DNA from: Chthoniobacterales bacterium
Lineage (GTDB): Bacteria > Verrucomicrobiota > Verrucomicrobiia > Chthoniobacterales > JAFAMB01
Direction of reading: 5' to 3'
Assembly (NCBI GenBank): GCA_035483355.1
Contig: DATHPZ010000004.1
Span: 1-44,635 of the forward strand
DNA: 44,635 bases
Position 1 is the stretch's first letter. Each line of letters starts with the position of its first letter. Under the pieces are notes generated by a model. The model searched no databases and had not been told where the DNA came from. It saw only the letters and a list, made by a program, of their open reading frames with translations. Position numbers and translations under genes: made by a program. This document shows, piece after piece, positions 28,488 through 41,085 of the stretch.

Positions 28488-29612
28488 TCACGCCGACACG
28501 CTCTCCCGATCGGGCTGGAAGGAGGAGATATCCGAGGAAGGCGTTTCTTCAACTGCCAATTGCGCCGCAAGCAATCCCACATATGGCCCCAGAGTCAGTC
28601 CGTACCGCCCAAGTCCCGTCGCCAGGATCAAACCGTCAATCGCAGCGGGCCGGCCGAGTAACGGCAAGCCGTCCCTGCTCATCGGCCGGAATCCGACCCG
28701 GATTTCCTCCAACGTTGCGTTCTTCAAGCCAGGCGCAATCCGCAATCCCTCCTGAAGTACCTCTGCGACTCCGCCGGCGGTCACCCGAAAATCGAATCCA
28801 GAACCGGTTTCGCGAGTTGCTCCCACCACGATTCGAGAATCGCGGAATGCAAGCATGTAATAGTCGCTCAGGACAGGCACGATAACAGGCAACGCCTCCG
28901 TATTTGTCTCTGAGACTTTGAGATGCAGGATCTGGCCGCGTTGCGGTCGAATCGCAAAATGAAGGCCAAGCGGCCGGCACAGTTCACTCGACCAGGCGCC
29001 CGCAGCGACGATCACAGCGTCCGCGCCGATGAATTCTTCGGCAACTTGCACACCGACGACGGCGCCGCTGGAACACCGTAAAACCGCAGTTCCAGACAAT
29101 TCCCCGGCCCCGGCTTTTCGCGCCGCTTTCAGCAGCGCAAGTCGGAGACTCTCTCCAGAAACTCGGGCGGCGCCGCTCAAATACACGCCGGCCAAGCCGG
29201 AATCGAGGTACGGAAATAACGCCTTGGGACCGCCGGTCTCAAGCAATCGGACTTCCCCAACCTCTTCGATTCCGCGCTCCAGATGCTTTTGCAATCTCCG
29301 GACGACAGGATCGAGTTGTTCGACGGACTCACCGACCACCAGACCGCCAACCACGTCGTAGTCCACGCCGTTTTTATTCGCCACCGAAAGCGTGGCGGCA
29401 AGTTCTGGGTAATACCTGACCGCCGCGAAGGAGAGAGTCTCATAGCGCGGATCCTGGTTAGCCGAAAGCCACGGACAAATAATTCCGGCGCCCGCAAGCG
29501 TTGCTCGACCTGGCGCATTGCTGTCTACCAGGTAAACTTCGACGCCAAATTGGGTCAGATGAAATGCGGCACTCGCCCCGGCGATTCCTGCTCCTACCAC
29601 CACGACTTTCAT
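28488..29612 (-). CDS. FAD-dependent oxidoreductase (DAO family)
   Basis: MKVVVVGAGIAGASAAFHL Rossmann GxGxxG motif and a ~374 aa DadA/ThiO-like layout. Substrate not assignable. Start trimmed to the ATG at 29612. Confidence 0.85.
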   Translation of the reverse strand: MKVVVVGAGIAGASAAFHLTQFGVEVYLVDSNAPGRATLAGAGIICPWLSANQDPRYETLSFAAVRYYPELAATLSVANKNGVDYDVVGGLVVGESVEQLDPVVRRLQKHLERGIEEVGEVRLLETGGPKALFPYLDSGLAGVYLSGAARVSGESLRLALLKAARKAGAGELSGTAVLRCSSGAVVGVQVAEEFIGADAVIVAAGAWSSELCRPLGLHFAIRPQRGQILHLKVSETNTEALPVIVPVLSDYYMLAFRDSRIVVGATRETGSGFDFRVTAGGVAEVLQEGLRIAPGLKNATLEEIRVGFRPMSRDGLPLLGRPAAIDGLILATGLGRYGLTLGPYVGLLAAQLAVEETPSSDISSFQPDRESVSA

Positions 29613-29738: not shown

Positions 29739-30015
29739 GTCAAAGACCAAGCCTGTCCAACGTTATACACCCTAACGGGAAGTTGTCGAAAAACCATCCC
29801 GGAACGCGAGTTCCATTTGCCCTTTGTTACCTTTGCTTTCTTCTGTTCAAATTCTCTTTGCTTCCTTCTGTGCGCCGTCAAAGACCAAAGCCTTGCGAAC
29901 GTAACACGTTCAAACGGGAATTTGACGAGAGGCCATCTCGGAACGCCAGTCCTGGTTACCCTTTGTTACCTTTGCTTTCTTCTGTTCAAATTCTCTTTGC
30001 TTCCTTCTGTGCGCC
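29739..30015. repeat. Two tandem 138 bp half-units of the long-hairpin repeat family (right core plus right arm only)
   Basis: 29739-29876 and 29877-30015 both begin GTCAAAGACCAA and end CCCTTTGTTACCTTTGCTTTCTTCTGTTCAAATTCTCTTTGCTTCCTTCTGTGCGCC. They are alignable to the right half of the units at 38861-40050. Confidence 0.8.
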
Positions 30016-30069: not shown

Positions 30070-30681
30070 CTAAGGCACCCTCCGCAACAGGCCGATCATC
30101 ACCCCCTGGATGACGAGTTCTGCCGCCGGAAGTAAGTCAGGATAAAGCGGATTCTCCGCTTTCAGGAATGGTTCGCCACGATCGAGCAGATAACGTTTCA
30201 AAGTGGATTCGCCGTCGATCAGTGCTGCGACGATTTCCCCGTTTTTCGGAACCCGTTTCTGAAGAAGCACCGTGTCACCGTCGGCGATCTGAGCGCCAAT
30301 CATCGAATCCCCACAAACCCTGACGGCAAAGACTTCCGCCCCGCTTTCTACCCCGAACGCTGCCAGATCGACCCCTACCTTGGCACTGCTCCATTCTAAC
30401 GCTTCGCTTGGCATGCCCGCCGGAATTTGGCCTAAGACCGGGATCGGCCGAAACCCGGGCAAAATACGTAAATTAGGATCGACCGCCGAACGAGCTTTTC
30501 CCGGGGTCCGATTGATCACACCCTTTCGTTCCAGGGCTCGCAGATGATTCATCGCGGCGGTCTGACTGTGAAACCCGAAGTACGCCTGGATTTCGCGACT
30601 CGAGGGGGGAAACCCGGTCTGTTGTTGTTGTTGCCGAATGAATTCGAGGACCTCCTGCTGGCGCGCGGTGAGTTCAGCCAT
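30070..30681 (-). CDS. lexA: LexA repressor (S24 peptidase)
   Basis: wHTH N-terminus (LTARQQEVLEFI...REIQAYFGF), cleavage-site region VLGQIPAGMP, catalytic GDSM and LKR. Confidence 0.95.
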   Translation of the reverse strand: MAELTARQQEVLEFIRQQQQQTGFPPSSREIQAYFGFHSQTAAMNHLRALERKGVINRTPGKARSAVDPNLRILPGFRPIPVLGQIPAGMPSEALEWSSAKVGVDLAAFGVESGAEVFAVRVCGDSMIGAQIADGDTVLLQKRVPKNGEIVAALIDGESTLKRYLLDRGEPFLKAENPLYPDLLPAAELVIQGVMIGLLRRVP

Positions 30682-30730: not shown

Positions 30731-30967
30731 GCGTTCGGCGTTCGGCGTTCGGCGTTCGGCGGGTGCAGTCAGGACATCGGTAACACTTCTGGATCAGGAC
30801 ATTCATGGATGCGCTTTTACATGATGGTTAGAGCTGCTCGTCGGATAAGCAAAAGCGTCCCGCTCTATTTCTTATGAAAGACAGGTAAACCGGGACGGCT
30901 TACTTACCTCTCCGCAACCGCGCCCGCCGAACTGCGCCGCCGAACTGCGCCGCCGAACGCCGAACGC
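30731..30967. repeat. Heptamer-bracketed hairpin element (member 2) in the divergent lexA intergenic region
   Basis: (GCGTTCG)x4 at 30731-30762 faces inverted GCCGCCGAACTGC x2 plus CGAACGC x2 at 30921-30967. The outer 17 nt are perfectly complementary. The ~155 nt interior contains AGCGTCCCG (30854-30862) / CCGGGACGGCTT (30890-30901). Confidence 0.5.
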
Positions 30968-32199: not shown

Positions 32200-32348
32200 G
32201 AACAGACGCGGAATAGGCTCGCCTGCTGCCGTCGCAAGGGCAGCGCAAAGCTCCCGCGCGGTCCGCCCGAAATAGAATTTGCATTTCACCAGAATTCGCC
32301 CACCATTGCCGGGTGCGAGGCCCCCGGCGCGCGCCTGAGGGTTTGAAA

Positions 32349-34238
32349 ATGAGCAAAGAATCCAAAAAAAAGAGTGGTATCCGAACAACATCTGATCCGG
32401 TCCCGTCTGAGAAAACCAAGGGGCAGGAACCCAAAAGTAAGGCTCCCATCGAGCCGGCCGACAAGCTGAAGTTTGAAGATTTAGGACCGTTACCGACCGG
32501 ATACGGCGAGATGTTTTTGATCGCGCGTGATCCACATTGGCTATTCACTTATTGGGATTTTGATTATTCGAAATTTCCGTCTCCGCGAAAACTGTTTATC
32601 CAGGTCTATCGAAATAATGAGCTCGAATCGACCGTCGAGATTAACGAAATCGCGCGCAATTGGTATATCCCGGTCCAATCAGCCGGATCGCCCTACAGCG
32701 TGGTTTTCGGATACCGGGACGCGAAAGACGCCTGGACAAGCGTAGGCAAGGCTGGACCGACTCAAACACCGCCAGAGTCGATTAGTCCAAATTGGGACAC
32801 CCAGTTTGCCACGGTGCCGTTCCACCTTAGCTTCAATTTTCTACTCGATGTCGTTTCGGCCGCGCGATCGGAAGGCCAGCCGTTGACGGAAACGTTGGCC
32901 CGCTTACAACAGGCAGCCATCGGCGGCGAAGCGGGCAGCTCGAGTTGGGGCGGCGAACAAATCAAGGTCTTGGAAACGCTACTCGGAAAACAATTTCTCG
33001 ATCGACTCTTCTCCATGAGTTCACAGGATGTCCTTCAATTTCTCCATTCAGAATTGAGCGGTCGCCTGGATTCGGAATCGGCCAGTGAGCTTCTTGCAAA
33101 AGGTCGTTTGGCTTCTTTGCTGGCCCCAGGGGAGTCCAGTTTGTTCAGCGCCTCGATCCGGGAATTTGTGCAACAGGAGCTCTCCAGCGGAGGAGTTAGC
33201 AGTTTCGGGAGTTCGGAGGTTGGCGGAGTCTCTTCACAGCTTGGCGGACTCTCTTCACAACTGGGCGGAGTTTCTTCACAACTCGGCGGCCTCTCCTCGC
33301 AACTCGGCGGCCTTTCTTCGGAAGTACTGGCCGGCGGAAGCGAAACGCTGGCCAGTTGGCAATCCGGAGTTAGAGCGATCATTTCAAATTGGGAACAGGC
33401 GCTCAGCTCACTGGGACTTGGCAGCGAAGTGATGGCCAGCTGGCACGCTGGTCTGGGGGAGATCGCCTCCAGTTTCACCAGTGCGGTCAGTTCGTATGGA
33501 TTCAGCAGCGAAACGCTGGCCAGCTGGCAGGCGGGTGTCGGAGAGATTTTCGCGAAATGGGAATCGGCGTTGAGTTCCTACGGGGTGAGCAGCGAGATGC
33601 TGGCCAGTTGGCAAGCAGGTCTTGGTGAAATTACCTCGAGTTGGGAGACTCTGCTCAGCTCGTACAGCCTGAGCAGCGAAATGCTTTCCAGCTGGGAGAC
33701 AGCGTTTGGGTCCTACAACGTCAGTTCGTTTTCTTTTGGATCCGAGCAAACGTCGAGCTGGAATCTTGCCAGCTGGAGTGGTTTGGAGTTTGGCCCCTCA
33801 AGTTGGGGCGCCTCGGAGTTCGGCCCTTCAAGCTGGAGCGGCTTGGAATTCGGCCTCTCCAGTTGGAGCGAGTTGGTTTCCGAAAGCAGTCTTTTCAGCG
33901 GGATCGGGGCAAGTTGGAGCGGGCAGCCTTTCGGCCAGTCCGGGCGCGAATTTTTCATGCATGTGAACGCTGAAGTGATCTTCTATGGCGGAACCGATCC
34001 GCAGGCGAAAGTCACGATCGCGGGCAGACCGGTTCAACTGCAACCAGATGGAACGTTCCGGTACCATTTTAAGTTTCCGGATGATGACTTCGAAATACCG
34101 ATTGTCGCCGTGTCTCCGGACGGCGTCGAGACGAGATCGGCGGTACTCTCCCTGCGACGGGATACCGCCCGGTATGGAGATGTCGACGCTACGGCGCAGC
34201 CCGAATATCTCGGCACGCCGATGGGCGAGAAGCATTAG
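32349..34238 (+). CDS. DUF4912 domain protein with a long internal Ser/Trp/Gly-rich repeat region
   Basis: GAGGG lies 8 nt before the ATG at 32349. N-terminal LPTGYGEMFLIARDPHWLFTYWDF matches the DUF4912 signature. The C-terminal FFMHVNAEVIFYGGTDPQAKVTIAGRPVQLQPDGTFRYHFKFPDDDFEIPIVAVSPDG module is typical of the family. Confidence 0.75.
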   Translation: MSKESKKKSGIRTTSDPVPSEKTKGQEPKSKAPIEPADKLKFEDLGPLPTGYGEMFLIARDPHWLFTYWDFDYSKFPSPRKLFIQVYRNNELESTVEINEIARNWYIPVQSAGSPYSVVFGYRDAKDAWTSVGKAGPTQTPPESISPNWDTQFATVPFHLSFNFLLDVVSAARSEGQPLTETLARLQQAAIGGEAGSSSWGGEQIKVLETLLGKQFLDRLFSMSSQDVLQFLHSELSGRLDSESASELLAKGRLASLLAPGESSLFSASIREFVQQELSSGGVSSFGSSEVGGVSSQLGGLSSQLGGVSSQLGGLSSQLGGLSSEVLAGGSETLASWQSGVRAIISNWEQALSSLGLGSEVMASWHAGLGEIASSFTSAVSSYGFSSETLASWQAGVGEIFAKWESALSSYGVSSEMLASWQAGLGEITSSWETLLSSYSLSSEMLSSWETAFGSYNVSSFSFGSEQTSSWNLASWSGLEFGPSSWGASEFGPSSWSGLEFGLSSWSELVSESSLFSGIGASWSGQPFGQSGREFFMHVNAEVIFYGGTDPQAKVTIAGRPVQLQPDGTFRYHFKFPDDDFEIPIVAVSPDGVETRSAVLSLRRDTARYGDVDATAQPEYLGTPMGEKH

Positions 34239-37564: not shown

Positions 37565-38851
37565 GTGTCAACCATTGAATTAGTCGTCCACTCTTATCCT
37601 CGCGAGCTTTCAGAACAGATTTGGTCGCTCTGGCAGCGAGCAAATGGCGCAGACACGCTTCTCGGTTCCGCCGAGAGACTGAATGGATTCCTGAGCATTG
37701 CCTATCAGGCCAGCCTTCTCTGTGAGGAGGGCCGCCCGGTCGAATGCCGGATCGCGCTTTTGGGCCGCCAGGCACTTGAGCCCGGCGCTCTCGCCCGTAT
37801 CGGTTTTCACGCCGTCCGCTTCGCGAAACGGCGGGTGTTTGGGGAGCAGGAAACTCGCCGGCTGGGACCGGCGACCGGATTTTATCGATCGATGATCGCC
37901 GTCGAATGGTCAGACGAAACAGGATTCGAAATATCCGGAATGATCCACACCGGTGCATGGTCCAGGGATTTGACCGTGGCCGTGGACACCGTCAATCACC
38001 CTATTCCGGATTGGCTGATCATCCATGTCAGAGGTCCGGGGAACCTGGTGATTCACCGCGGTTCCGAACGCATTGTGACTTTGCTCAACGGTAAAGTCGA
38101 AGGTCACGGTTTCAATCTTTTCGACTCTTCGTGGTTGCTTCAGCGCTACCGCACGGTAGGTGAAGGATTTACAGGCGCAGTTGCGCCCAATCTGCCGGAT
38201 TCGGTGCTCATTCGCGATGATCTCGCCGAACAAATTGGAATCCACTTTATGCGCAGAGTCATCCGGGAGATTCGGAATTCCCGGCAGGGCGGCACCATCG
38301 TCTTCGCCCCGAGGTTGCTCATGGGAAACCTTCTCAAGTCCGGCGGCCCGCTACGGGCAAAATATCTGATCGAAGAAACCTGTACGGCCTCTCCGTTTGC
38401 TCTCATTCTCGAGGATGTCGCACTGCGTCTGGCTCAATTCGCCGTGATTAAAGGAATATCATCGCCAGGCTGGTCAGAGTACCTGGCATGGTACGAAGAC
38501 TTTCCGTATACGTTCAGCCAACGATTTGTGGAGCTGGCATTGTGGCTTTCAGACCTCACGGCAGTCGACGGTTGCTTGCTGCTCGATCACAAATTCACCT
38601 TGTTTGGATTTGGCGTTGAGATTCAGGTCCCCAGTTTTGAAGACGAAATGGTGTATCGCGCCCTCGATATCGAAGGACAAGATTGCGTCCTCGAGTCGAT
38701 GGAAAGCGCCGGGACCCGGCACCGAACAGCCTACCGTCTCTGTCGCGAGTACGCGCAATGTCTGGCAATTGTGGTCTCGCAGGACGGCACGGTCAAATTC
38801 GTCGCCAACCATGAGGACAAAGTGGTCTACTGGAACCACCTGGATTTCTGA
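37565..38851 (+). CDS. Diadenylate-cyclase-fold (DAC/DisA_N-like) protein with an uncharacterised N-terminal domain
   Basis: 428 aa with a GTG start. The C-terminal half carries DAC-like motifs in order: GGTIVF (aa 242-247), VDGCLLLD (334-341), GTRHRTA (383-389, the same heptapeptide I recall in DisA) and IVVSQDGT (402-409). The first ~230 aa match nothing I recognise and may be the DACNV-type sensor domain. Confidence 0.6.
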   Translation: MSTIELVVHSYPRELSEQIWSLWQRANGADTLLGSAERLNGFLSIAYQASLLCEEGRPVECRIALLGRQALEPGALARIGFHAVRFAKRRVFGEQETRRLGPATGFYRSMIAVEWSDETGFEISGMIHTGAWSRDLTVAVDTVNHPIPDWLIIHVRGPGNLVIHRGSERIVTLLNGKVEGHGFNLFDSSWLLQRYRTVGEGFTGAVAPNLPDSVLIRDDLAEQIGIHFMRRVIREIRNSRQGGTIVFAPRLLMGNLLKSGGPLRAKYLIEETCTASPFALILEDVALRLAQFAVIKGISSPGWSEYLAWYEDFPYTFSQRFVELALWLSDLTAVDGCLLLDHKFTLFGFGVEIQVPSFEDEMVYRALDIEGQDCVLESMESAGTRHRTAYRLCREYAQCLAIVVSQDGTVKFVANHEDKVVYWNHLDF

Positions 38852-38860
38852 AATCGGCCC

Positions 38861-40050
38861 TCACAGAAGGAAGCAAAGAGAATTTGCACAGAAGGAAGCA
38901 AAGGAAACGAAGGGTTGGATACTGTGTGCAAGCCGGCCGTTGACAGCGCTTTCCCTAACCACCTACGGCTTCTTAAATCGCCCGGGCAAAGGCCGAGCCC
39001 ATCGAACGTTACACGCGCAAACGGGATTCTGCCGAACGATCCTCCAAAAAACTTTGGTCCTAATCGCCCTTTGTTTCCTTTGCTTCCTTCTGTTCAAATT
39101 CTCTTCGCTTGCTTCTGTCAGCCGCGAAACCTCAACGTCGCGAGCCTTAGGTAAAGCGTCGTCGCTCACAGAAGCAAAAAAGACGGACTTGAACAGAAGG
39201 AAGCAAAGGAAACGAAGGGCCGGATACGGTGTAAGCCGGCCCTTGACTGCGCCTTCCCTAACCGCCTACTGGTTTCTTCTATCGCCCCGCCAAAGGCCGA
39301 GCCCATCGAACGTTACACGCGCAAACGGGAATTTGCCGAACGATCCTCCCAAAAGACCTGGTCCTGATTGCCCTTTGTTTCCTTTGCTTCCTTCTGTTCA
39401 AATTCTCTTCGCTTGCTTCTGTCAGCCGCGAAACCTCAACGTCGCGAGCCTTAGGTAGGTAACGCGTCGTTCGCCTCACAGAAAAGAAAAAAGACGGACT
39501 TGAACAGAAGGAAGCAAAGGAAACGAAGGGTCAGATACGGTGTAAGCCGGCCGTTGACTGCGCCTTCCCTAACCGCCTACTGGTTTCTTCTGTCGCCCCG
39601 TCAAAGGCCGAGCCCATCGAACGTTACACGCGCAAACGGATTCTGCCGAACGACTCCCAAAAAAACCGGTCCTGATTGCCCCTTTGTTTCCTTTGCTTCC
39701 TTTGCTTCCTTCTGTTCAATTCTCTTCGCTTGCTTCTGTCAGTCGCAAAACCTCAACGTCGCGAACTCTATGTGAAGCATAGCCACACCATAGAAGGAGC
39801 GAAAACGACTTGAACAGAAGGAAGAAAAGAAAACGAAGGGAAGGATACGGTACAAGCCGGGCGCTGACGGCGACTTCCGCAAAGCCTCAACTCCTGGGCT
39901 CTTTAATCGTCGCGTCAAAGGACAAAGCCCGTCGAACGTCACGCGCGGCAACGGGAATTTGCCAAAGGACCTCCCCGAAAGCCCGGTCTTGATTGCCCTT
40001 TGTTTCCTTTGCTACCTTCTGTTCAAATTTTCTTCGCTTGCTTCTGTGAG
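38861..40050. repeat. Array of four tandem ~300 bp long-hairpin units (MITE-like or structured-RNA-like)
   Basis: Units at 38861-39152, 39166-39456, 39476-39773 and 39790-40050. Each has a purine-rich left arm (...TTGAACAGAAGGAAGCAAAGGAAACGAAGGG), a 150 nt core and a complementary right arm (GCCCTTTGTTTCCTTTGCTTCCTTCTGTTCAA...GCTTGCTTCTGTCAG). Units 1-3 also carry a conserved linker (CCGCGAAACCTCAACGTCGCGAGCCTTAGGT). Confidence 0.85.
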
Positions 40051-40059
40051 GTCCTGGCT

Positions 40060-41085
40060 TCAATAAGAAGCCTGTGCGCCCTTAATATTTTTCTTCTGTA
40101 TCCAGGGCATCAGCGAGCGCAGTCGTTCGCCCGTCTTTTCGATCGAATGTTTTTCGCCGTCCTTGAGAAGCCTTTTGTAGTTCGGCAAGCCAGCTGCGTA
40201 CTCTGCGATCCAGCCTTTGGCGAATTTCCCGCTCTGGATATCCTTCAGAGCCTTCTGCATCTTCTTTTTGACCGAACTATCGATCACGTTCGGACCCACC
40301 GAGACATCCCCCCACTTGGCGGTCTCGGAGATCGAAAATCGCATTCCGGCGATCCCGGACTCGTACATGAGATCCACGATCAATTTCAATTCATGCAAAC
40401 ACTCGAAATAAGCCATCTCCGGCTGATAACCGGCTTCCACGAGAGTTTCGAACCCGTTTTGAACCAGTGAAGTCAGACCGCCGCACAAGACCGTCTGTTC
40501 CCCGAATAGATCCGTTTCTGTTTCCTCTTTGAACGTCGTTTCGAGTACGCCTGCCCTGGTCGCTCCGATCCCTTTCGCCCATGCCAACGCCAGTTTCTTC
40601 GCTTGCTTGGACGGATTTTGGTAGACCGCGACAAGGGCCGGGACGCCTTTCCCTTCCAGGTATTGCCGGCGCACGATGTGGCCGGGGCCTTTTGGGGCGA
40701 CCATAATGACATCCACCTCTTTTGGGGGAACAACGGTTTTAAAATGCACCGCAAATCCATGGCTGAACAAGAGCGCTTTTCCCTTCTGCAGATGAGGCGC
40801 CACTTCGGTTTCATAGATCGATGCGCTCTTGAGATCGGGGGTCGCAAAGAAAATGATATCAGCCTTTTTTGCCGCTTCACTCACTTCCAGGACCTGAAAA
40901 CCGTGCTCCTCGGCGACAGGGACAGACTTGCTGCCTTTGTACAAACCGACCACCACCTGTACTCCACTGTCCTTGAGGTTCAGCGCGTGCGCGTGACCCT
41001 GGGACCCAAATCCGATCACCGCGCACATCTTTCCATTGAGGTGGGCGAGGTCTGCGTCCTTATCCGTGTAGACTTTTGCTGGCAT
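40060..41085 (-). CDS. ilvC: Ketol-acid reductoisomerase (class I)
   Basis: 341 aa with [27 protein letters not shown] and FSHGF. Confidence 0.95.

Follow-up and report, generated by a model that had tools for sequence, protein, structure and literature searches.

The nearest described counterparts of the DNA analysed here are repetitive extragenic palindromic (REP) elements, their composite bacterial interspersed mosaic elements (BIMEs) and the REP doublets forming hairpins (REPINs), together with the REP-associated tyrosine transposases (RAYTs) (Nunvar 2010, PMC2817692; Bertels & Rainey 2011, PMC3116915; PMC3337134). Our subject is array A, a block of tandem hairpins at 38859-40047 of a 44,635-nucleotide stretch from a Chthoniobacterales bacterium (contig DATHPZ010000004.1; this whole stretch is called the window below), where it occupies the convergent gap between a DACNV/DAC-domain open reading frame (ORF; 37565-38851, plus strand) and ilvC (40060-41085, minus strand). 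Each unit comprises a ~55-nt purine-rich arm, a ~150-nt core (core1, then core2) and a complementary pyrimidine-rich arm; elsewhere, related arms bracket genes for GxxExxY proteins. [quoted passage not shown] The region is probably selfish or neutral repetitive DNA, an amplified non-autonomous GxxExxY-linked repeat, and not an RNA gene. The GxxExxY association is the part worth following up.

In its logic the family is REP/BIME/REPIN-RAYT-like. Its repeats are dispersed, apparently abundant, extragenic and lineage-specific, often lie at gene 3′ ends and form arrays of alternating orientation, as REP elements and BIMEs do; its inverted doublets form long hairpins, as in REPINs; and like REPs it shows no target-site duplications. 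As with RAYTs, a low-copy gene, here GxxExxY, sits at a fixed chromosomal locus between two inverted repeats, and repeat sequence changes along with gene lineage. We nevertheless do not class it as a member, because two defining traits are absent, a palindromic repeat and a Y1 transposase: REPs are 20-40-nt palindromes, whereas the arm is 52 nt long, non-palindromic (folding energy, dG, of 0) and free of the GTAG/CGTC tag, and the associated protein has a PD-(D/E)XK fold (PDDEXK_3/GxxExxY) in place of the IS200/IS605-type Y1 HUH transposase of RAYTs. Compared with REPs and REPINs, the spacers are long (~150 nt) and the mobilising activity of GxxExxY is one that we infer. Inverted doublets, the replicating unit of REPINs, occur here, and the unit common to different loci is a half-element, core2 plus arm, with core1 being locus-specific.

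Correia and ERIC elements are bacterial MITE comparators. Another is BrickBuilt of Porphyromonas gingivalis, which contains a minisatellite (PMC4596501). Like such MITEs, the family is small, non-coding and intergenic, with fixed-polarity terminal inverted repeats and many dispersed copies, and it may hold or form tandem repeats and may give neighbouring genes a stop or C-terminal codons. Unlike MITEs, it has neither target-site duplications nor a parent insertion sequence with a recognised transposase, and complete inverted pairs are matched in frequency by half-elements and direct arrays.

The mycobacterial interspersed repetitive unit-variable number tandem repeat (MIRU-VNTR) loci, intergenic minisatellites reportedly described by Supply and colleagues in 1997, share with the family intergenic tandem repeats oriented with the flanking genes, strain-polymorphic copy number and occurrence at many loci; they differ in unit length (46-101 nt, against 139-304 nt here), and the family has inverted arms and lacks small ORFs overlapping the stop and start codons of its neighbours. 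Finally, the GxxExxY cassettes, as distinct from the window array, recall the intervening sequence with a small ORF in 23S rRNA, for example that of Coxiella burnetii (PMC4990558): both are selfish inserts of ~400-500 nt, inserted co-directionally in a transcribed unit, with one small ORF whose bounding inverted repeats would pair once transcribed. The cassettes differ in lying outside rRNA and in encoding a PD-(D/E)XK protein instead of the four-helix-bundle S23p, and the window array has no ORF at all.

Array A, a recent insertion amplified in place

Tandem Repeats Finder (TRF) gave array A a period of 304, 3.8 copies and 83% matches, in agreement with the four tandem ~300-bp hairpin units that an initial reading of the DNA letters and predicted ORFs (the sequence-only reading) had placed in this convergent gap. 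That reading's description of the units also held: the purine-rich and pyrimidine-rich arms are 81-91% complementary; folded as RNA, unit 2 forms an outer 10-bp helix, an internal loop and a ~32-bp inner helix (dG −118.7, z −9.6), while unit 1 pairs nearly continuously (z −8.9); and unit 4 is the more diverged, at 83-85% identity against 91-97% among units 1-3. The arms can pair across the 31-45-nt linkers as well as across the 150-nt core, and the layout returned by the arm profile (< 152 > 70 < 151 > 77 < 159 >) has the regular spacing and alternating orientation of a BIME-like composite. The arm motif matches ten times in the 44.6-kb window and not once in 100 shuffles. The features of the array and its two flanking genes are as follows.

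38856-40058, no strand: array A, four hairpin units in the convergent DACNV-ilvC gap (TRF, inverted/direct repeat map, 3- and 4-unit alleles)
38860-38914, minus: unit A1 purine-rich arm, the family arm reversed, 9 nt past the DACNV stop codon (repeat map, arm profile)
38915-38990, plus: unit A1 core1, locus-specific (nhmmer core1 profile, no match beyond the locus)
38991-39066, plus: unit A1 core2, belonging to the dispersed core family (core2 profile)
39067-39121, plus: unit A1 pyrimidine-rich arm (repeat map, motif, arm profile)
39122-39165, plus: linker 1, junction from pyrimidine to purine arm, holding CGCGA-N10-TCGCG (sequence; fold no better than shuffles)
39166-39220, minus: unit A2 purine-rich arm (repeat map, motif, arm profile, fold)
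39221-39370, plus: unit A2 core, core1 + core2 (sequence comparison, core profiles)
39371-39425, plus: unit A2 pyrimidine-rich arm (repeat map, motif, arm profile; the single arm is unfolded)
39426-39474, plus: linker 2 (sequence, fold)
39475-39530, minus: unit A3 purine-rich arm (repeat map, motif, arm profile)
39531-39679, plus: unit A3 core (sequence comparison, core2 profile)
39680-39742, plus: unit A3 pyrimidine-rich arm, with an extra 9-nt sub-repeat missing from allele L008 (TRF period 9 at 39681-39711; allele comparison)
39743-39785, plus: linker 3, diverged (sequence comparison)
39786-39840, minus: unit A4 purine-rich arm, diverged, not detected by the arm hidden Markov model (HMM) at E<=1e-3 (repeat map, motif)
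39841-39995, plus: unit A4 core, diverged (sequence comparison, core2 profile)
39996-40050, plus: unit A4 pyrimidine-rich arm, outer end 9 nt from the ilvC stop codon (repeat map, motif, arm profile)
37565-38851, plus: flanking gene for a DACNV sensor/DAC-domain protein (Pfam PF21751 E=2e-18, PF02457 weak)
40060-41085, minus: flanking gene ilvC, ketol-acid reductoisomerase (Pfam KARI_N, KARI_C)

The outermost arms begin about 9-12 nt from the stop codons of both flanking genes. As first read, the array is non-coding, with no reading frame conserved across the units, and no transposase or partner gene was seen in the window. Two finer details fared less evenly: the CGCGA-N10-TCGCG linker hairpin is present as letters and folds no better than shuffles (z −0.4), and the conserved core box exists, although it is exact only in unit 2 and its spacer is 3 nt (CGC), not 4.

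Same-species loci, gathered via the exact ilvC protein, came from six other soil assemblies: four carry three units and two carry four. These alleles differ by exactly one unit plus linker, which bears out the proposal that whole units were duplicated in tandem, and one allele lacks the 9-nt sub-repeat. Copy number varies at other arm loci too. Head-to-tail repeats of strain-variable copy number, the property that defines a VNTR, are thus found in array A (3/4), in the second array described below (1/2) and in the 9-nt sub-repeat indel.

Syntenic loci of relatives, gathered through DACNV homologues, have a DACNV-ilvC gap of 7 nt where the protein is 83% identical and of 52 nt where it is 90%; in a relative at 76% identity the gap holds 393 nt of unrelated sequence, and no arm occurs in ~60 kb of these syntenic regions. 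Because the gaps of relatives lack the elements and copy numbers differ between strains, the elements arrived after the lineages split and are still changing. Amplification proceeded by unequal recombination or slippage between near-identical arms, giving a BIME/VNTR-like array. In a relative whose DACNV protein is 85% identical (L132, 11288-17147), ~5.8 kb lies in the gap, including CheB/CheR-PAS genes and several small unannotated ORFs, without arms; insertions seem to recur in this convergent gap.

Two arm-motif matches outside the region first noted revealed a second array at 29739-30015, which the sequence-only reading had overlooked. With a period of 139 and 2 copies (TRF), array B consists of half-units only, core2 plus pyrimidine arm, without a purine arm.

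29739-30015, plus: array B, two tandem core2 + pyrimidine arm half-units between lexA and a DAO oxidoreductase gene (TRF, sequence)
29820-29874, plus: array B arm 1 (motif, arm profile)
29959-30013, plus: array B arm 2 (motif, arm profile)
30070-30681, minus: lexA, upstream of array B (Pfam LexA_DNA_bind + Peptidase_S24)
28488-29612, minus: FAD-dependent oxidoreductase (DAO), downstream of array B (Pfam DAO; start at the ATG conserved with L132)

Its arms are purine-rich on the sense (minus) strand of both neighbouring genes. Alleles L007 and L009 have one unit where the window has two, and the lexA-DAO gap of L132 is 135 nt without an element. TGTTC-N4-GAACA is the LexA motif known for Verrucomicrobia; the arm contains TGTTC, yet not this palindrome, and a LexA box was dropped as an identification.

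A dispersed family of arms and core2 modules

Scanning for exact matches to the arm's invariant part found it at 6 loci in 3 Verrucomicrobiae/Chthoniobacterales soil metagenome-assembled genomes (MAGs) and in more than 119 soil metagenome contigs; the array is thus not the purely local duplication of junk DNA that the sequence-only reading had named as the alternative. The same pattern had 0 matches in viral contigs, and a phage origin was rejected. A 54-column arm profile HMM, run on 852 kb of arm-selected Chthoniobacterales soil contigs, returned 326 arms, arranged as solo arms, as purine-to-pyrimidine inverted pairs and as same-orientation arrays. There are 61 purine-to-pyrimidine doublets, whose gaps run from 9 to 821 nt (mode 150-160 nt); the same-orientation arrays reach 8 copies at spacings of ~45, 80, 90 and 170 nt, and such arrays and solo arms are as frequent as inverted pairs.

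The arm is ~52 nt long, sharply bounded and asymmetric in purine/pyrimidine content. It is built of two ~25-nt sub-repeats (ACAGAAGGNAGCRAAG...) with a 9-nt periodicity, its most conserved segment is AAGAGAATTTGAACAGAAGG, and it is ~87% conserved between unrelated loci whose surroundings are not. A single arm folds at dG 0 to −0.4 kcal/mol, no better than shuffles, and is therefore not palindromic; the long hairpins arise because arms sit in opposite orientation. The outer ends (CACAGAAGG...CCTTCTGTG) point outward in all inverted pairs, internal array junctions excepted. One subfamily (L018, L022, L023, L129, L047, L042) carries an extra outward inverted-repeat extension of ~20 nt (AACCGCTTCGATCAATGCTC, followed by GACAGAAGG...), so that element boundaries vary between subfamilies.

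Spacers are near-copies of one another within an array and differ between genomes, which share the arm alone. Their near-identity within arrays marks tandem duplications and rules out a clustered regularly interspaced short palindromic repeat (CRISPR) array; no cas genes were seen in a Pfam scan that covered the six ORFs flanking the two arrays.

A core2 profile (~85 nt) built without arm sequence found 63 members in 22 loci, 56 of which abut an arm in the correct orientation, while an nhmmer profile of core1 found nothing outside the array A locus, to which the linker too is confined. Since core2 is dispersed and core1 and linker are unique to the locus, the dispersed module is core2 plus arm, ~139 nt, precisely the unit that makes up array B. 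The 300-nt hairpin, taken at first as the basic entity, accordingly gives way to a ~52-nt arm, often joined to a ~85-nt core2, and the array does have the mobile-element-like origin that the sequence-only reading had played down. Hairpin units of another size also occur: locus L135 has three with a period of ~237.

Arms around GxxExxY genes

The only gene that recurs between arms is a 133-aa ORF matching PF13366 PDDEXK_3 (E=1.4e-33) and TIGR04256, 'GxxExxY protein'. In related Verrucomicrobia a purine arm lies upstream of this gene and a pyrimidine arm follows directly on its stop codon, and arms bracket the gene at L135-L144, L145 and L146. Each lineage has one conserved GxxExxY locus. The contigs L135-L144, with L056, L067, L072 and L091, represent a single conserved locus, Gnd-FolD-LysA / GxxExxY / MetH, and GxxExxY as a multi-copy cargo was rejected on this ground; the locus is a hot spot at which arm arrays vary greatly between assemblies. 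In some of them a single 47-nt arm spans the GxxExxY-LysA gap and encodes the last codons of LysA, and in L072 the array downstream of GxxExxY repeats the last ~110 nt of the gene plus the arm. The window-type core2 module itself flanks GxxExxY in L056, L067 and L072 (E 1e-8 to 1e-12).

The association survives the collapse of these loci into one because independently chosen loci show it too. L145 and L146 were picked through the GxxExxY protein, not the arm. In L145 (70% identity; VWA and OmpA neighbours) TTTGAACAGAAGGCAACAAAG... lies 9 nt before the ATG and its inverted copy 17 nt after the stop, forming a 30-nt inverted repeat that is 87% complementary; in L146 (67% identity; next to 6PGD and a 294-aa protein) a purine-arm fragment lies upstream of GxxExxY and the inner half of a pyrimidine arm begins 2 nt after its stop.

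The association recurs in other phyla. Plasmid and megaplasmid records searched with tblastn contain GxxExxY genes that sit co-directionally, wedged in among housekeeping genes: after radA in Bacteroides finegoldii, after ade in Bernardetia, and in Sphingomonas parapaucimobilis (L157; NZ_CP155749.1, 482837-483265) in the order fabD, GxxExxY, fabG with gaps of 33 and 2 nt. In all three genera the gene is surrounded by internally periodic 25-30-nt inverted repeats, purine-rich upstream and pyrimidine-rich downstream: TTCACCACAGAGGACGCAGAGGACACGGAG in Bacteroides (L155, 90% complementary), AACACAGAGATAAGGAGAACCACAGAGA in Bernardetia (L156, 86%) and TTCACGCGAAGGCGCGAGGACGCGA in Sphingomonas (92%). 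Gemmatirosa (L161) has a complete mini-hairpin on each side of the gene (TGAACCGCAGAGGACGCAGAGG..., with 32-35-nt arms that are 100% complementary). The pairing of gene and repeat thus extends over Verrucomicrobiota, Bacteroidota, Gemmatimonadota and Alphaproteobacteria; among ten GxxExxY lineages, flanking repeats are clear in seven, weak in one (Treponema) and missing from two (Persicobacter and Prevotella).

Gene-less dispersed copies were present in all three hosts checked, Bacteroides, Sphingomonas and Gemmatirosa. The Sphingomonas repeat occurs at 19 places, nearly all of them in Sphingomonas replicons, and the Bacteroides repeat at 84, of which 48 lie in the two Gemmatirosa megaplasmids. 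A 24.8-kb B. finegoldii record holds three gene-less hairpins; two start 5-13 nt past a stop codon, and one occupies a convergent gap.

Placement relative to genes shows a bias. With genes called crudely as long ORFs, arm clusters number 19 in convergent gaps, 26 in tandem ones and 7 in divergent ones; where an arm is nearest a gene 3′ end, its purine strand is the sense strand in 48 de-duplicated cases against 15, and the majority of the 15 exceptions involve short, doubtful ORFs. Arms frequently lie 0-20 nt from the stop codon. At gene 5′ ends their orientation is unbiased (17 versus 23). Arms also supply coding sequence: the last codons of LysA (...ITEG, stop) are the outer end of an arm, and several ORFs stop at an arm TGA; such arm-derived coding ends occur in L072 (1900-1925), L135 (1226-1290), L040, L079, L128 and L033.

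We tentatively suggest that GxxExxY proteins could be the trans-acting partners of purine/pyrimidine-armed hairpin repeats that span phyla, a second and independently evolved association of the REPIN/RAYT kind in which a PD-(D/E)XK nuclease, not a Y1 transposase, maintains or spreads the repeats, and of which the window array would be one amplified non-autonomous population. In our main reading of the array, arms would serve a small GxxExxY cassette as its cis-acting ends and be recognised or mobilised by the PD-(D/E)XK protein, by analogy with REPs or REPINs and their RAYT, and gene-less copies would be non-autonomous derivatives of that cassette. The mechanism of mobilisation is one we infer: the cassette would insert co-directionally just behind genes, which would account for the sense-strand bias, the purine arm being the upstream end of the cassette.

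Several points weigh against this proposal and the wider attribution of the array to a GxxExxY-linked repeat. No GxxExxY gene lies in the 44.6-kb window. Core2 was considered as a relic of the GxxExxY C-terminus after a visual match (HAQTGICRTILP versus HAVTLKEGICRMILP) and rejected: tblastn gave E=1.7, a profile of the gene 3′ end gave the window E=8-35, and the reverse profile did not match the GxxExxY gene. Across phyla, the Verrucomicrobial arm HMM has no statistical match to the repeats of other phyla, so that arm homology was not detected by this route, and what links them is a common design and context, together with a 22/26 match of the window arm to that of Bacteroides; the loci of Persicobacter and Prevotella (L163, L164) have no flanking repeats, and that of Treponema only weak ones. 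The orientation statistic rests on the crude gene calls, and metagenome assemblies may collapse tandem repeats, yet several independent assemblies agree on each allele. As to the protein, its AlphaFold2 model is confident (pLDDT 93.8), and the fold search gives only generic PD-(D/E)XK nuclease matches, the best being Cas4 SSO0001 (E=7e-4, TM 0.50); GxxExxY has no sequence homologue in the PDB. No PD-(D/E)XK nuclease is known to transpose DNA by itself.

The family is very large (more than 5,000 homologues at E<=1e-20 in one search) and is listed with function unknown in the 2012 PD-(D/E)XK survey. We found no paper in the searchable literature that links GxxExxY or PDDEXK_3 to repeats, and the association appears not to have been described there previously; it would give this orphan family a concrete, testable function. 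If the link is true, a lifestyle pairing a domesticated nuclease with a repeat population would have arisen more than once, with unrelated enzymes, which bears on the origin and persistence of REP-like elements. For annotation, a puzzling large non-coding block is explained as lineage-specific repetitive DNA; such arrays break assemblies, vary by strain, give rise to false ORFs and supply genuine genes with stop or C-terminal codons.

Arm pairing and competing explanations

The sequence-only reading had noted that the arms could form cruciform or triplex DNA or a very stable RNA stem. Its observations were confirmed and its interpretation was right in part, but a selected RNA or cruciform stem is not supported. 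Of 35 hairpin pairs, 31 were long enough to score: partner arms are 0.90 identical against 0.87 for non-partners, and their mismatches are balanced between A:C (44) and G:T (38). Because partners barely exceed non-partners and mismatch types are balanced, arm complementarity is mostly that of two facing copies of one conserved sequence, and selection for pairing was rejected; there is little evidence that pairing is selected.

An exapted cis-acting RNA is the rival that survives best, and we consider it unlikely. Here the 45-55-bp stems, formed from either convergent transcript, would work as a terminator in both directions or a barrier to read-through, as an exonuclease block stabilising mRNA 3′ ends or as an RNase III site, and a mobile origin would be compatible with any of these. 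The great stability of the hairpins in units 1 and 2 fits such a role, as do the closeness of arms to both stop codons here and to many elsewhere, the 48:15 sense bias, the excess of convergent over divergent gaps (19 versus 7) and the similar placement in B. finegoldii. So does the composition of the DACNV-ilvC gap, since no intrinsic terminator (GC-rich stem-loop plus T tract) was found in 38852-40059; the sole terminator-like site of the scanned stretch, 40113-40130, lies inside ilvC. Yet close relatives manage with gaps of 7 or 52 nt and no element, copy number varies freely among strains, partner arms show neither compensatory evolution nor a G:U bias, solo arms and direct arrays cannot form the stem, and cores are wholly different between genomes. 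Effects on ilvC or DACNV expression, through a 3′-end hairpin, an RNase III site or a barrier to convergent read-through, are possible; they are not required, because relatives lack the element, and any effect on the flanking genes would be incidental.

We give little credence to an ordinary MITE of a DDE-type insertion sequence, with the arms as terminal inverted repeats for a transposase elsewhere in the genome and GxxExxY as a coincidental hot spot. The fixed polarity of the arms, with CACAGAAGG as outer end in all 61 purine-to-pyrimidine pairs, would suit such an element, as would its patchy distribution among related lineages. In addition, what looks like the C-terminus of an IS110-family transposase (...KWIRILFACWKNRVPYDPDRYLKALQSRGSEYAQTAP, stop) lies ~150 nt from a full arm in L003 (7733-8000 of MAG contig CAWBKA010000033.1), although Pfam gave no match for this 37-aa fragment, at which the locus ends; IS110 elements are known to target repeats. 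Against this, target-site duplications were sought in 13 complete elements, as the sequence-only reading had proposed, and the direct repeats are at best 2-4 nt, not above shuffled flanks; no transposase was found between or beside arms in ~0.9 Mb; direct arrays and solo arms equal inverted pairs in frequency; at GxxExxY loci picked without regard to the arm, both sides nonetheless carry it; and the pairing of gene and repeat recurs in other phyla with different repeat sequences.

Less probable still, the array may be a set of sites bound by a host protein with affinity for DNA or RNA (a nucleoid protein, for instance, or an Hfq/CsrA-type protein on the A-R-N/GGA-rich purine strand), and the arm sequence would itself be the function. 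The conservation of the arm against its surroundings, the strand bias relative to genes, and the internal 9- and 25-nt periodicity, which suggests multimeric binding, speak for it, but the arm is missing from related species of the same family, its copy number is unconstrained, and no candidate binding protein was identified.

A tandem array of a structured non-coding RNA gene (a small RNA, ribozyme or riboswitch-like RNA with functional core boxes) is largely refuted and very improbable, since, beside the conserved blocks of core2 across 22 loci that would favour it, Rfam 15 gave 0 matches at gathering score over the whole window and a permissive scan only sub-threshold plant miRNA-precursor matches of the kind that generic long hairpins give (a known RNA family is excluded at both thresholds, as first read), RNAalifold found no consensus structure in core2 on either strand among 15 unique members, which rejects a structured core, no sigma-70-like promoter was found in array A and no terminator in its gap, core1 is locus-specific and relatives lack the element.

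The window holds further repeats. Perfect short tandem repeats lie in the divergent promoter region upstream of lexA (GCGTTCG x 4.4 at 30731-30761 and a 13-mer x 2.7 at 30924-30958). The DUF4912 gene (32313-34238) contains in-frame tandem repeats at 33222-33319 (21/42-nt x 4.7) and 33785-33870 (30-nt x 2.9); in strain variant L012 it is called as a truncated 185-aa product beside a ~1.5-kb stretch without called genes.

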